Shown here in pieces: positions 7,936-16,278 of a stretch of 20,318 bases of DNA. The first letter of the stretch is position 1. Each line of letters begins with the position of its first letter. The position numbers and the translations under genes are program-made. The notes beneath the pieces were generated by a model, which saw nothing but the letters and a program-made list of their open reading frames with translations, made no database searches and was not told the origin of the DNA. Source of the DNA: a bacterium (GTDB lineage Bacteria > UBA6262 > WVXT01); contig JBHIBS010000027.1 in assembly GCA_046759165.1 (NCBI GenBank), positions 1-20,318 of the forward strand, read 5' to 3'.

Positions 7936-7971
7936 AACCGCCCATTTTATAAACAGGGCGGTTTCTTATTT
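7936..7971 (+). terminator. Intrinsic terminator of the CDF-NSS operon
   Basis: AACCGCCC / GGGCGGTT 8-bp stem followed by TCTTATTT. Confidence 0.65.
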
Positions 7972-7974
7972 GGG

Positions 7975-8003
7975 TTGACAAAGGCATTTAAATCTGGTAT
8001 AAA
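7975..8003 (+). promoter_or_regulatory. Sigma70-type promoter for the tRNA cluster, possibly continuing into tig
   Basis: TTGACA (7975-7980), 17 nt, then TATAAA (7998-8003) with TGn. Confidence 0.8.
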
Positions 8004-8107
8004 TTAGACGACAACTTCTTATTTTTCTATTTCAGCAATAGCTTAGGTAAGTAAATAGAAAAATTACTATTGTTCCCTGCTGGCCCATAAGGAGGAGGGG
8101 GTTGATA

Positions 8108-8160
8108 GTCTCGATTTTCCATCGAGACACTTGAGAGGATTCCACGGAGTGGAAGCTGAT
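8108..8160 (+). repeat. tRNA-abutting two-hairpin element B, copy 1
   Basis: GTCTCGAT/ATCGAGAC hairpin, ACTTGAGAGG linker, TTCCAC-GGA-GTGGAA hairpin, then GCTGAT and the tRNA. 23/32 identical to 16173-16204. Confidence 0.7.
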
Positions 8161-8237
<77 letters not shown>

Positions 8238-8271: not shown

Positions 8272-8344
8272 GGGCCATTAGCTCAACAGGTAGAGCAACT
8301 GCCTCTTAAGCAGGAGGTTGGAGGTTCGATTCCTCCATGGCCCA
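8272..8344 (+). tRNA. tRNA-Lys(CUU), CCA not encoded
   Basis: GGGCCAT/ATGGCCC acceptor stem, anticodon loop CT-CTT-AA, GGAGG-TTCGATT-CCTCC T-arm. Confidence 0.93.
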
Positions 8345-8347
8345 CTT

Positions 8348-8438
8348 GCCGCGGTGGTGAAATTGGCAAACACGCTAGGCTTAGGACCTGGTCTCCAATT
8401 ATATGGAGTTGAGAGTTCGAATCTCTCCCGCGGCACCA
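8348..8438 (+). tRNA. tRNA-Leu(UAG)
   Basis: GCCGCGG/CCGCGGC acceptor stem, CTAGG-CT-TAG-GA-CCTGG anticodon arm, long variable arm (CTCCA..TGGAG), A discriminator plus CCA. Confidence 0.93.
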
Positions 8439-8456: not shown

Positions 8457-9752
8457 ATGGAAAATTTAAAAGTAGAAATGTTCAAGAAAAGCGAATGTGA
8501 GCTTGTTTTCAAAATCGAGATTCCTCAGGCAGAAGTAGAGCAGGAAATGGAGTCGGCATATAACCGGATTCAAAGGGAGGCTGTTATACCCGGTTTCCGT
8601 AGAGGGAAGGCACCGTCTCCTTTATTGAGGGAGAGATTTAAGTCCCGTTGCCAGGAAGCTGTTTTAGAATCGCTTGTCCCAGGTGCATTATCTCAGGTGG
8701 TAAAAGAGAAGGGAATCGACCCTGTTGTTCCGGCAAAGATTTCTGACCTTAAAGTCGATTTTGATAAAAGGGGCCCGATATCTTTTCAGGCAGCTGTTGA
8801 GGTGATGCCTCATTTTGACCCACGGGATTATAAGAGACTGAGGATAAAAAGAGAGACAAAAGTCGTGGGAGATTCTGAAGTAGGGAAGAGTCTGAAGGAA
8901 CTACAGAAAAGGAATGCCCAGGTTGTGGTCTCCGGAGATAGCGTGGTGGATAGAAAAAGTTATGTAGTAATCGATTATCAAGGGTTCGATAATGGTAAGC
9001 CCTTGGATAGTCTGCGGGGAGAAAATCAGTTGATAAGCATTGAAAACCCCATTTTTCTCCGGGAGTTCTCTGAAGGATTGATTGGCATGGGAAGAAATGA
9101 GGAAAAAAATCTTGAAGTTAGCTTTCCTGATAATTATTATAACAAAAAGCTGGCTGGACGTAAGGCTCTCTTTAAGATAAAGGTTAAAGAGATTAAACAC
9201 ATGCAATTACCGGAAATCGACGATGCTTTTGCTCAGGGATTAGGTGTTAAATCTTTGAGAGAACTGAAGGAGAAATTGAGGAAAAATTTGATTGGGCTGG
9301 AGGAGCATAGAGCAAGAGAGGCGATGAAAGAACAGATTATTGACAGGCTAATTGAGAATAACCCGGTGGCGGTTCCCTATTCTCTGGTCGAAAAACAGCT
9401 CGATTATTTGGTCTCAAAGATGAAGGCTTACCTCCAGAGTCGTGGGCTTACTTCGAAAGATATCGGGGCGGGTGAGGAAGTTCTGCGGAAGAAATATCGT
9501 AACCTCGCGGAAAAAGAGGTCCGAAGCGCTTTAATTCTTACCAGGATAGCTGAGAAAGAGAATATCCAAGTCGATTCCAACGAAATAGAGAAGGAAATAG
9601 AGGAAACAACAAAATCAACCAAAGAGAAAGAAGAAGAGGTAAAGAGATATTTTTATGAAAATATAGACCAAATCACAAGCAGAATGAAAGAGAATAAAGT
9701 ATTTGACTTTTTAATAGAAAATGCTAAAATTGTAAAGGAGAAGATGAAATAA
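8457..9752 (+). CDS. tig: Trigger factor
   Basis: IPGFRRGKAP ribosome-binding signature, FKBP-like middle domain (VSFPDNY..LAGRKALFKIKV) and position before clpP. The start is moved to ATG 8457 because the ORF-track start at 8403 lies inside tRNA-Leu. Confidence 0.95.
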   Translation: MENLKVEMFKKSECELVFKIEIPQAEVEQEMESAYNRIQREAVIPGFRRGKAPSPLLRERFKSRCQEAVLESLVPGALSQVVKEKGIDPVVPAKISDLKVDFDKRGPISFQAAVEVMPHFDPRDYKRLRIKRETKVVGDSEVGKSLKELQKRNAQVVVSGDSVVDRKSYVVIDYQGFDNGKPLDSLRGENQLISIENPIFLREFSEGLIGMGRNEEKNLEVSFPDNYYNKKLAGRKALFKIKVKEIKHMQLPEIDDAFAQGLGVKSLRELKEKLRKNLIGLEEHRAREAMKEQIIDRLIENNPVAVPYSLVEKQLDYLVSKMKAYLQSRGLTSKDIGAGEEVLRKKYRNLAEKEVRSALILTRIAEKENIQVDSNEIEKEIEETTKSTKEKEEEVKRYFYENIDQITSRMKENKVFDFLIENAKIVKEKMK

Positions 9753-14345: not shown

Positions 14346-14424
14346 TAATTGGATCTAGCTCGAGAGCGAAGTTCTGCTTTATAAATGAACTGATTCACTT
14401 AGATAATAACCCTGTGCGGAAGGG

Positions 14425-14485
14425 GTCGCTGGAGCGACGAATAAGGAGCTCCGTGTTAGCGACGGGCGCGAGACGGTGAGCGCCC
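14425..14485. repeat. Double-hairpin element A, full copy
   Basis: GTCGCT-GGAGC-GACGAATAAGGA-GCTCC-GTGTT-AGCGAC-GGGCGC-GAGACGGTGA-GCGCCC. 48/61 identical to 20168-20228, with all stem changes compensatory. Confidence 0.85.
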
Positions 14486-14538
14486 CGGGTTGAGGTTTCC
14501 CCTATTGAGCACAGGCTGATTCACATAAGGAGGTTTTC

Positions 14539-16119
14539 GTGAAGGTATTAGTTAGCGATAATTTAGCGGAAGAAGGTATAGAGTTATTGAGGGGAAATCC
14601 CAATATTACAGTTGATGTAAAGCCTAAAATGGAATCGCAAGAGTTGATAAAGCACATCAGCGAATACGATGCTCTTCTTGTGCGAAGTGCAACTAAGGTG
14701 ACGGGAGAGGTAATCGACGCAGCAAAGAATTTGAAAGTCATTGGACGAGCGGGAGTGGGAGTGGATAATATCGATGTTGAGGCAGCAAGTAGGAGGGGTA
14801 TCCTGGTAATGAATACGCCCGGCGGAAATACCATTTCTGCAGCAGAACATACAATGAGTATGCTCTTAGCATTATCCCGCTGTATTCCCCAGGCTAACGT
14901 ATCCCTGAAGAGTAGGCAGTGGGAAAAGAAAAAATTCCTAGGAACCGAAATTTTCAAAAAGACCCTGGGCATAGTCGGAGTGGGTAGAATCGGAGCTGAA
15001 GTTGCAAAAAGGGCGCAGTCTTTCGGAATGGAGATAATAGCTTACGATCCCTATATTTCTAAGGCCCATGCGCGAGAGATTGGCGTTAAATTGGTTAGTT
15101 TTCCGGAACTTATTAAACAGGCAGACTATATAACAATTCATGTTCCATTAACTTCTGAAACTAAACACATATTTAATAGAGAAACCATCAATCAGATGAA
15201 GGAAGGAGTGAAGATTATAAATTGTGCTCGTGGTGGAATCATAGATGAAGCTGCCTTAGCAGAAGGAGTGAAGTCAGGTAAGATTGGTGGGGCAGCTCTC
15301 GATGTTTTTGAGAATGAACCACCTTTTGATAGTCCCATTTTGGGTTTGGAGAATATAATTGTTACACCACATTTGGGAGCTTCAACCGAAGAGGCTCAGA
15401 TTAACGTGGCAAGAGATATTGCACTGCAAGTTTTAGATTTTCTTAACAAAGGCATTGTTCGCAATGCAGTTAACATGCCAGAATTAGACCCTGAGAAAAT
15501 GAAGACCTTGGGTCCCTATATCGGTCTTTGTGAGAAATTAGGGAGGTTACAGGCCCAGATAGGCGAGGGAGGGTTTACTCAGATTGTCGTCCAATACTCA
15601 GGAGAGATTCTCCATCACGAGATTAAGCCTTTAACCATTGCACTGCTTAAGGGGCTTCTGGAGCCAATTTTGGAAAGGGAAGTCAATTTTGTCAACGCTC
15701 CTTTAATTGTCCAGGAGAGGGGGATTAAAGTTATCGAGTCTAAAGTGAGCAAGGTGGAAGATTTTGCCAACTTAATAGTGGTCCAGGCAATGACAGAAAA
15801 AGGTGAGAATACGGTTACCGGGACTCTTCTGGGGAAGAAAGAGCCTCGTCTGGTAAGAATTGGCGAGTTCGATTTGGACGTTATTCCTGAAGGATATATG
15901 CTACTCTGTTCAAATTTGGACAAGCCGGGAGTAATTGGTAAAATAGGAACAATTTTGGGAAATAGAAAGATTAATATAGCCGGGATGCAGGTAGGGAGAA
16001 AAACAGTTGGTGGAAAAGCGCTAACCATCATTAATGTAGATTGTAATATTTCAAAAGAGGTTTTAAAAGAGATAGAAGGTATAGCCGAAATCCTCGAAGT
16101 AAAAATGGTAAACCTTTAA
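14539..16119 (+). CDS. serA: D-3-phosphoglycerate dehydrogenase (long form with ASB and ACT domains)
   Basis: RAGVGVDNID, GVGRIG, NCARGGII, DVFENEPP and TPHLGASTEEAQ motifs. C-terminal ACT domain (DKPGVIGKIGTILG..INIAGM). GTG start with a TAAGGAGGT RBS. Confidence 0.97.
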   Translation: MKVLVSDNLAEEGIELLRGNPNITVDVKPKMESQELIKHISEYDALLVRSATKVTGEVIDAAKNLKVIGRAGVGVDNIDVEAASRRGILVMNTPGGNTISAAEHTMSMLLALSRCIPQANVSLKSRQWEKKKFLGTEIFKKTLGIVGVGRIGAEVAKRAQSFGMEIIAYDPYISKAHAREIGVKLVSFPELIKQADYITIHVPLTSETKHIFNRETINQMKEGVKIINCARGGIIDEAALAEGVKSGKIGGAALDVFENEPPFDSPILGLENIIVTPHLGASTEEAQINVARDIALQVLDFLNKGIVRNAVNMPELDPEKMKTLGPYIGLCEKLGRLQAQIGEGGFTQIVVQYSGEILHHEIKPLTIALLKGLLEPILEREVNFVNAPLIVQERGIKVIESKVSKVEDFANLIVVQAMTEKGENTVTGTLLGKKEPRLVRIGEFDLDVIPEGYMLLCSNLDKPGVIGKIGTILGNRKINIAGMQVGRKTVGGKALTIINVDCNISKEVLKEIEGIAEILEVKMVNL

Positions 16120-16153
16120 CTTACAGTCCCGATTTTCAGTTGGGGCGCAAGGG

Positions 16154-16204
16154 GGGAGAACCACGTTCTCCCACTTGGGAGGTTTCTGCGGAGCAGAAAC
16201 CGAC
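16154..16204 (+). repeat. tRNA-abutting two-hairpin element B, copy 2
   Basis: GGGAGAAC/GTTCTCCC hairpin, ACTTGGGA linker, GGTTTCTGC-GGA-GCAGAAACC hairpin, then GAC and the tRNA. Confidence 0.7.
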
Positions 16205-16278
16205 GAGCCGGTAGCTCAGCTAGGTAGAGCAGCGGCCTTTTAAGCCGTTGGTCGCGCGTTCGATTCGCGCCCGGCTCA
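16205..16278 (+). tRNA. tRNA-Lys(UUU), CCA not encoded
   Basis: GAGCCGG/CCGGCTC acceptor stem, GCGGC-CT-TTT-AA-GCCGT anticodon arm, GCGCG-TTCGATT-CGCGC T-arm. Confidence 0.94.

Follow-up and report, generated by a model that had tools for sequence, protein, structure and literature searches.

The window, a 20,318-nucleotide (nt) stretch of DNA (contig JBHIBS010000027.1) from an uncultured bacterium, carries two copies of a structured element directly in front of the genes for tRNA-Arg(UCG) and tRNA-Lys(UUU). Each copy contains a 33-nt core that ends on the last base before the mature tRNA, and in relatives and metagenomes this core is the 3' end of a unit of about 122 nt. Judged from the sequences at hand, the unit is a previously undescribed, repeat-prone folded leader of one family of uncultured bacteria. 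Its most probable nature, at somewhat under an even chance, is that of a self-folding leader cassette, specific to this lineage, that ribonuclease P (RNase P) would cut off and whose last hairpin, H3, would mark the boundary.

Bacterial tRNA leaders are usually regarded as unstructured, quickly evolving and disposable. The leader family described here stands out for its defined fold, its one-base register with the RNase P site, its confinement to exactly three tRNAs, its tandem multiplication and its lack of a place in any described RNA family. The anatomy of the unit, its register, distribution, covariation and turnover, and the presence of RNase P genes are observed in this analysis.

A core element in fixed register with tRNA +1

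ARAGORN and Rfam place the first base of tRNA-Arg(UCG) at 8161 and that of tRNA-Lys(UUU) at 16205, so that the upstream elements end at 8160 and 16204, exactly at position -1, as a sequence-only reading of the window had proposed. The 33-nt core begins with CACTTGNGAGG, continues into a covarying hairpin with a CGGAG loop and closes with CYGAY. On recounting, the 32-mers before the two tRNAs are identical at 23/32 positions without gaps, and both contain the stem closed by C-GGA-G, with the two compensatory swaps that had been pointed out. RNAfold predicts two hairpins in each copy (stretches of 51-53 nt), at -17.5 kcal/mol (z -2.1) for 8108-8160 and -26.5 kcal/mol (z -4.7) for 16154-16204. 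Each element also precedes the first tRNA of its cluster, as described before: tRNA-Arg(UCG) heads an Arg-Lys-Leu cluster, and tRNA-Lys(UUU) stands alone. The 8-bp hairpins reported upstream of both cores are real, but they are different modules, the one at 8108-8128 aligning with hairpin H1 of the full unit and the one at 16154-16172 being hairpin H2. The two hairpins had been taken as a single conserved block, and this part of the earlier reading is not supported, since the upstream hairpins are non-homologous and optional.

The genome to which the window belongs (G000; 1.89 Mb in 165 contigs, 42% G+C, 92% complete) holds a third copy before tRNA-Ala(CGC), at G000:C21:27982-28014 on the minus strand. 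This copy is truncated by the contig end, and its stem is a third variant, TTTCGC/GCGAAA. When the 70 nt upstream of all 40 tRNAs are listed, the core stands before three of them and ends at -1 each time. A strict pattern for the core matches the whole assembly three times, always at a tRNA -1, and its reversed control gives no match; the 12-nt motif at the 5' end of the core has four matches, namely the three cores and C49:8509, where the hairpin is lacking. The fixed register suggested from two copies thus extends to the whole genome, with no core copy away from a tRNA -1 or at a random site.

Architecture and distribution of the unit

The unit was compared across 12 genomes (the window genome, eight other species genomes of its family, two order mates and one class mate), with one covariance model for the 33-nt core (R1) and another for the full unit (R2). 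From 5' to 3' the unit comprises an AU-rich linker, the G-rich module A (..GGGAGAACCUCUAAGGAGAGGGGG), AUAACAG, hairpin H1, the linker GCAAGGGG, hairpin H2 (GGAGAAC-NNN-GUUCUCC), CACUUGRGAGG, hairpin H3 and the tail CYGAY. The stretch between module A and H1 is a purine-rich junction. A long-range helix, P1, takes its 5' strand from module A and its 3' strand from within CACUUGRGAGG, and a further helix, P2, closes H2. After the terminal H3 comes a tail of 3-4 nt, YGAY, and 3 nt are always left free before the tRNA.

The unit is restricted to the leaders of tRNA-Lys(UUU), tRNA-Arg(UCG) and tRNA-Ala(CGC), where it occurs singly or in tandem arrays. R1 finds matches in 7/12 genomes, and its nine strong matches all abut +1 of these same three tRNAs; module A has eight matches in five of the 12 genomes, every one of them in these leaders. 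Leaders of the orthologous tRNAs were read in all eleven relatives. A hairpin followed by YGAY stands at -1 of Ala(CGC) in 8/8 family genomes read, at -1 of Lys(UUU) in six of seven and at -1 of Arg(UCG) in three of six, the leaders without it being those of G003, G005 and G006. The Lys leader of G005 keeps only the 3' half, with H3 split by another repeat. The element is missing from all seven order- and class-mate leaders read, which are AT-rich and have ordinary promoters. Across one genome per prokaryote species, 14 loci match the strict pattern. Three of them, all in this family, are real, and 11 are chance matches with no hairpin or tRNA. Rfam 15 contains no counterpart among the stretches searched: in the window the gathering score is reached by tRNA alone, no credible match appears at E up to 10 over 7960-8170 (families including RtT RNA, ribozymes, riboswitches and T-box), and loci with full units from six relatives give none at E up to 1.

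A scan of metagenomes gave 64 pattern matches at 53 loci, of which 31 matches, in 20 loci, are real; some of these loci probably belong to organisms already represented among the species genomes, which makes the counts non-independent. Nineteen of the 31 abut a tRNA +1 (Ala(CGC) 10, Lys(UUU) 8, Arg(UCG) 1), and the other 12 are internal array units before those same tRNAs. The arrays have a period of 135-142 nt and reach three full units on metagenome contigs. At their internal junctions the first 2-5 bases of the local tRNA stand between YGAY and the AU-rich linker, namely GAG at Lys loci, GCGCC or GCG at Arg loci and GG at Ala loci. In its core and its tRNA start, locus L151 agrees with the Ala copy of the window genome, and it carries three tandem cores at a 142-nt period, a first core without module A and then two full units. 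Given these tandem cores in the near-identical L151, the end of contig C21 inside the Ala(CGC) leader is probably a point at which the assembly broke on the repeat. Another locus, L155, equals the Lys locus of the window plus one extra unit. At the Lys loci of G004 and L146 the cassette begins at the stop codon of serA, the gene upstream, and there is no space for a promoter.

Aligned with the full unit, the window copies are short or degenerate versions of it. R2 aligns 8064-8160 at 32.7 bits, with the P1 pairs mostly broken, and the hairpin at 8108-8128 (GTCTCGAT...ATCGAGAC) resembles a palindrome, TCCCGATT..AATCGGGA, that is dispersed in the family. The Lys copy scores 84.8 bits over 16092-16204, where the end of serA is placed on module A and P1 is paired. 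The end of serA with its stop codon (AAACCTTTAA, 16110-16119) is complementary to the Lys core at 16177-16185, and the last codons of serA could, on paper, pair with core bases GGAGGTTT and so supply one side of P1, its 5' strand. Relatives in which serA ends in ..AACCTCTAA have a matching core, ..TTGAGAGG.. The word AACCTCTAA is also present in module A of the full unit, which may point to descent from a duplicated serA end. At the Lys locus CAAG within 16147-16172 can pair with CTTG of the core to give P2.

Structure and covariation

Part of the comparative evidence for the fold comes from H3. In 12 distinct cores, five of its nine pairs are changed on both sides; none of 500 shuffles reaches this score, and the slid controls are all beaten. 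In 28 distinct units, eight of the nine pairs of the full H3 have double changes, part of which stem from the wholesale replacement of H3 by a palindrome, CCCGAUU..AAUCGGG. When P1, H1, P2/H2 and the upper part of H3 are taken together over the 28 units, 90.1% of cells are paired, compared with 31-51% after sliding. For the whole structure 12/32 pairs are changed on both sides, again a score that 0/500 shuffles reach. Pair 26-111 of P1, for example, is CG in 14 units, UA in 8 and UG in 4.

Covariation supports H3, H1 and P1 as predicted helices, whereas H2 and P2 do not vary among the aligned units and covariation is neutral on both. Further homologues with covariation exist, and neither outcome that the sequence-only reading had named as refuting, copies at random sites or a lack of covarying homologues, was seen. 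Core bases 10-13 (G10-U13) take part both in P1 and in the lower stem of H3, and compensatory change is seen in both helices. A competing local hairpin in module A, CCUCU..AGAGG, was rejected: it has no covariation and pairs at any slide.

A proposed boundary hairpin in a probably processed leader

The position of the unit between the promoter or upstream gene and the tRNA +1, on the tRNA strand and in a genome with RNase P genes, is that of a 5' leader. A look for the processing enzymes, advised in the sequence-only reading, found rnpB of type A (174 bits) and rnpA (95 bits) and did not find PIN_5/HARP in the window genome. The element can therefore not be put down to an unusual processing enzyme, and removal of the leader by RNase P is its expected fate. 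Only 4-6% of the sampled words are present in the RNA runs, most likely conserved tRNA parts.

According to one study (PMC7897497), RNase P requires unpaired bases at about -1 to -4, and cleavage is prevented when a hairpin masks the leader. In the present units 3 nt are always left free. In some units H3 is replaced by the unrelated palindrome CCCGATT..AATCGGG, with its loop in either orientation, and the flanks GAG...CGAY and the register are kept. This suggests that what is needed at H3 is the hairpin itself and not its sequence. It seems to be enough that some stable hairpin stands at -4 and is followed by a 3-nt spacer, in keeping with an insulating or boundary function.

The mechanism tentatively favoured here begins with a cassette that would be co-transcribed with tRNA-Lys(UUU), tRNA-Arg(UCG) or tRNA-Ala(CGC) and that RNase P would cut off directly after its last base. 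H3 and the short tail would keep the G-rich leader self-folded and off the tRNA body, and would offer RNase P a fixed junction. After cleavage the upstream RNA, either the leader or, at the Lys locus, the serA mRNA, would end in a 3'-terminal hairpin. Such a hairpin on the released RNA, with a possible stabilising effect, is most plausible for serA. Units would be gained, lost and rebuilt via recombination between repeats, and hairpin modules would be swapped for the dispersed palindrome.

Several observations weigh against this mechanism. A pure boundary role leaves unexplained the near-invariant CGGAG loop (24/28 units), the linkers CACUUG, GGGGGAUAACAG and GCAAGGGG, and the tandem arrays. 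The element is also dispensable, as the Arg leaders without it (3/6: G003, G005 and G006) and the split H3 of G005 illustrate. In two runs from other studies a contig joins 16119 to 16170 and skips H1 and most of H2, a short form in which the core comes directly after the serA stop; other contigs of the same two runs have the long form, and loose ends there show module A and H1. Cells with G-U and A-C number 12 and 9 in P1, 5 and 4 in H1, and 4 and 2 in H3. Since G-U is not clearly in excess of A-C, a sense-strand RNA is not proven over a palindrome acting at the DNA level. Finally, the sequences are few and related, so that the shuffle controls overstate the support, and the comparative case for the predicted structure is real but moderate.

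Turnover and the possibility of an insertion cassette

The palindrome TCCCGATT-N-AATCGGGA serves as H1 and sometimes as H3. It occurs in 9/9 family genomes, with 2-37 copies in each, in 0/3 order and class mates and in 3/139 other genomes. Copies in the window genome lie at C39:3615-3633 (inside rnpB), C4:23121 and C10:34304, and a close look-alike lies inside 23S rRNA at about 13069-13085 of C1. Variants of the core are common to different tRNA loci: the Arg core of G000 equals the Lys core of G004 at 33/33 positions, and orthologous Lys cores differ at 9/33. Paralogous leaders from an old duplication, which the sequence-only reading had kept as its plain alternative, would fit the homology of the three leaders, the tandem duplication and the sharing of variants between loci, but the explanation holds only partly.

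Outside the lineage, R2 finds one weak match among 151 genomes (G055, 30.5 bits), which rests mainly on the palindrome and its flanks. This genome is unrelated and deep-branching, and 41 genomes around it, G055 included, have no R2 match beyond its own. The element (locus L167, G055:C126, 1406-1680) is unit-like and lies between tRNA-Val(UAC) and a direct copy of the last ~20 nt of that gene. It has a G-rich start, the junction GAGGGGGTGACAG, the palindrome TCCCGATT..AATCGGGA, a second hairpin and the ending GGAGCGAAAGCGAC. In the 3 kb covered at this locus, no integrase accompanies the ~20-nt duplicate of the tRNA 3' end.

Such turnover raises an alternative that is unlikely on balance and yet deserves serious weight: the cassette may have arisen as a run-away tandem duplication, or it may be a non-autonomous element of small size; in both cases it would sit at the exact 5' boundary of tRNAs and be tolerated because RNase P removes it from the transcript. 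Its hairpins would then serve the cassette's own propagation or recombination and not the cell. Presence, absence and copy number do change fast among close relatives and within populations, cores at different tRNAs are identical although orthologous Lys cores are not, and hairpin modules are drawn from the dispersed palindrome family. The unit itself, with module A and the CGGAG hairpin, is by contrast undispersed and found only before three tRNAs, and its linkers are nearly invariant across genera, which suggests constraint. The short copy of the tRNA start at internal junctions (2-5 nt; GAG, GCGCC, GG) resembles a target duplication, but the duplicated stretch is variable in length, unlike a transposase footprint, and single units such as that before Arg in G004 have no left-hand copy of the tRNA start. 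Of a direct tRNA repeat of the att type only these 2-5 nt of the 5' end are seen, and the ten largest open reading frames (ORFs) of the window include no integrase or transposase. The genome does have two Y1 transposase genes and several other repeat families, yet the repeats that flank the Y1 genes differ from these hairpins. The position of the G055 match beside a tRNA-Val duplicate would also suit an insertion. If the cassette is a passenger, repeats would be safe in the space before tRNA +1, since RNase P clears them from the transcript.

Two features of one specific class of dispersed elements were looked for and not found. Dispersal of the type known for repetitive extragenic palindromic (REP) sequences and bacterial interspersed mosaic elements (BIMEs) is seen for the swapped-in palindrome only, since the core, the CGGAG hairpin and module A occur only at three tRNA sites in G000 and only in these leaders in the family. 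A cognate REP-associated tyrosine transposase (RAYT) was sought in the two Y1_Tnp genes, but their flanking inverted repeats (GGGGTCAGAGT...TTTTT type) are unlike these hairpins. The two Y1 (IS200/RAYT-like) genes lie at G000 C4:49552-50500 and C40:2340-3070, one of them directly after tRNA-Arg(UCU) and tRNA-His, and each is flanked by inverted repeats of its own, of the AAAGGGGTCAGAGT..TTTTT type and the GGGGACAGGCTACTTTTT type.

Other repeats occur near the units. The repeat CCCCTCACCC(TAA)CCCTCTCCCC-N3-GGGGAGAGG, found in both orientations in G000 (C10:11613, C13:12126, C19:9038, C29:4651 and C141:620), is the one that splits H3 in the Lys leader of G005, and it replaces the unit in the Arg leaders of G003, G005 and G006. 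At the Ala loci L014, L080, L118 and L126 of relatives, the first unit is separated from the upstream gene by palindromes tagged with GTAG (GGTAGCCGCAACC..GGTTGCG, with an inverted partner ending in CTACC).

Switching, small-RNA and DNA-level readings

There is a slim chance that the unit is more unusual still, being either a natural RNA-encoded gate, in which a toggle between P1 and the full H3 sets the rate of RNase P, or a cassette that homes to tRNA +1 and is removed by RNase P, like an intron outside the gene. The gate in its explicit form is a slimmer prospect. The unit would switch between two folds and so determine how fast three single-copy tRNAs acquire their mature 5' ends. In the first fold P1 would hold core bases 7-13, the lower H3 stem would be open and the 6-9 nt before the tRNA would be single-stranded; in the second H3 would be fully formed and only GAY would be free. 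Candidate triggers are temperature, a ligand, a protein and ribosomes that translate the last codons of serA; at the Lys locus the stop region of this gene would act as the 5' strand of P1. The overlap of P1 and the lower H3 stem at G10-U13, with compensatory change in both, fits such a toggle, and position 12 can pair with either partner in both the U/A and the C/G variants. Forced-fold energies at 37 C lie within 5 kcal/mol of each other in 19/28 units, and P1 is favoured in 10/28; covariation is absent from the local hairpin of module A that would compete. A synthetic device of the same logic works in vitro and in vivo (PMC7897497). However, core-only copies (G004 Lys, L146) and the Arg copy of the window cannot switch, two of the 28 units have a broken P1 strand, and units with a palindrome as H3 differ by 7-13 kcal/mol between folds. 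The covariation of P1 comes from few independent changes, no aptamer-like conserved pocket was identified in the units, and arrays of identical units are unusual for switches.

A trans-acting small RNA or protein decoy is improbable. RNase P would free a stable, G-rich RNA of about 120 nt that binds a protein or pyrimidine-rich RNAs, and an array would yield several such RNAs per transcript. Conserved single-stranded purine tracts, the invariant CGGAG loop and a 3'-terminal hairpin would suit this role, and tandem arrays would raise the dose. A precedent for a functional RNA from a tRNA transcript is rtT RNA (bioRxiv 10.1101/2024.07.17.603846). Small RNAs that derive from tRNA spacers are another. 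Against it stand the internal units, which have no tRNA to guide RNase P, and the want of a partner: neither CsrA nor L7Ae-family genes were found in the 92%-complete genome.

Least probable is a DNA-level signal, in which the palindrome and its flanks would act as promoter, operator or recombination site for tRNA genes: -10-like hexamers in the AU-rich linkers that open units (TATAAT in L151, for instance), the TTGAAA within the loop of the dispersed palindrome and the lack of a clear G-U excess over A-C are compatible with it, but the stem arms covary rather than keep one sequence, the core has no properly spaced -35/-10 pair, the orientation to the tRNA is constant and the register is to the RNA +1 and not to a promoter distance.

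A number of known motifs were considered and set aside. Self-cleavage, one of the activities suggested for checking in the sequence-only reading, is not supported: no Rfam ribozyme matches, and a hammerhead-like CUGAUG is confined to the Arg copy of the window. Other copies have CCGACG instead, the junction triplet is preceded by A where U would be expected, and the hammerhead was rejected. A sponge for CsrA/Rsm proteins would be suggested by GGA in the H3 loop and linkers, but no PF02599 gene was found in the 92%-complete genome; the loops of replacement hairpins often lack GGA. A kink-turn or box C/D-like motif was considered for the conserved GA...GA flanks of H3, but there is no canonical stem beyond the bulge (U-Y opposition); no L7Ae-family (PF01248) gene was found in G000. 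The promoter reading of the core fails for lack of fitting hexamers, by two promoter scans and by eye. Mimicry of 23S rRNA domain V was rejected as well, since the matches, GGGGATAACAG (11-12 nt, E 0.02-0.08) and GGGAGGTTTG (10 nt, E 0.23), are too weak and are taken as chance. These two words are collinear in some units.

Comparison with known systems

In the tyrT operon of Escherichia coli, 178-bp tandem repeats follow the tRNA on its 3' side and copy about 19 nt of its 3' end. The tyrT repeats with rtT RNA (RF00391) share with the present unit a tRNA flanked by tandem structured non-coding repeats, each with a short copy of a tRNA end and freed by processing of the transcript. They differ in that the present units lie 5' of the tRNA, end at -1, copy its first 2-5 nt and have no sequence or Rfam match to rtT RNA. 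One preprint gives rtT RNA a role in processing of the tyrT transcript (bioRxiv 10.1101/2024.07.17.603846). By analogy, the tyrT 3' repeats with rtT RNA appear to be the closest natural counterpart.

REP/BIME mosaics resemble the unit in combining hairpin modules with conserved linkers, in having modules that are present, absent or inverted, and in lying in transcribed extragenic DNA. They can also give the upstream RNA a 3' hairpin, and the palindrome TCCCGATT..AATCGGGA is dispersed in 9/9 family genomes. The whole unit (module A, the CGGAG hairpin and the linkers), by contrast, is confined to three tRNA leaders in one-base register with +1. The analogy would thus explain the swapping of modules and not the unit itself.

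Small RNAs from the spacers of tRNA transcripts, such as 3'ETS-leuZ of E. coli, are excised from the tRNA precursor by tRNA-processing nucleases. RNAs of this type are single, short, Hfq-dependent and enterobacterial, whereas the present element is a repeated 5' leader of about 122 nt in an uncultured lineage.

A synthetic RNase P riboswitch (Ender et al. 2021, PMC7897497) is similar in that a hairpin directly 5' of the tRNA sets the length of the single-stranded leader and in that upstream sequence competes for one arm of that hairpin. It differs in being engineered and in binding theophylline, whereas switching of the natural unit is only predicted from sequence. If the fold does tune access of RNase P, the unit would be the first natural counterpart of a device that is so far only synthetic. 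The arrays also have a practical side, for they break assemblies (contig C21 ends inside one) and could be mistaken for CRISPR-like or regulatory repeats.

Features of the window

The coordinates of the two loci are collected in Table 1. The hexamers and spacing of the promoter-like site of the Arg operon are kept in G004, G005, G006, G008 and locus L125; a consensus promoter scan missed the site because it demands T at position 6 of the second hexamer.

Table 1. Features at the tRNA-Arg(UCG) and tRNA-Lys(UUU) loci of the window
Feature	Position	Strand	Basis or remark
Promoter-like site TTGACA-17 nt-TATAAA of the tRNA-Arg/Lys/Leu operon	7975..8003	+	~155 nt upstream of tRNA-Arg; read from sequence
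Degenerate 5' part of leader: remnant of module A and G-rich junction ...GGAGGAGGGGGTTGATAG	8064..8107	+	R2 alignment
Hairpin module H1, GTCTCGAT-TTTCC-ATCGAGAC, 8 bp	8108..8128	+	RNAfold; aligns with H1 of full units
Arg core CACTTGAGAG; H3 at 8137-8157 (CGGAG loop); tail GAT ending at -1 of tRNA-Arg(UCG)	8128..8160	+	
tRNA-Arg(UCG), first in cluster	8161..8237	+	ARAGORN, Rfam
tRNA-Lys(CUU), Arg cluster	8272-8345		
tRNA-Leu(UAG), Arg cluster	8348-8438		
Last codons of serA, AAACCTTT, overlapping stop codon at 16117-16119	16110..16117	+	R2 alignment; serA by Pfam
Hairpin module H1, imperfect, GTCCCGATT..AGTTGGGGC	16126..16146	+	Aligns with H1
Linker GCAAGGGG and hairpin H2, GGGAGAAC-CAC-GTTCTCCC (H2 at 16154-16172)	16147..16172	+	
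Lys core CACTTGGGAG; H3 at 16181-16201 (9 bp, CGGAG loop); tail GAC ending at -1 of tRNA-Lys(UUU)	16172..16204	+	
tRNA-Lys(UUU)	16205..16278	+	ARAGORN, Rfam

The genes of the window are housekeeping genes: an SNF symporter, tig, clpP, lon, a class-V aminotransferase, serA and a PMT-type glycosyltransferase. A dispersed repeat of about 90 nt (..GGAGCGACGAATAAGGAGC..GGGCGCGAGAYGGTGAGCGCC..) has at least 11 genomic copies, one of them in the window at about 14420-14540 and others in C5, C10, C17, C29, C40, C43, C61, C76 and C85 of G000. The window copy lies just upstream of serA and runs into ..CTGATTCACATAAGGAGG and the start codon, and pieces related to this repeat precede two tRNA-Gly genes, tRNA-Asn and tRNA-Val. 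The longest ORF of trigger factor begins at 8403, inside tRNA-Leu (8348-8438), and its real start is probably an ATG near 8458.

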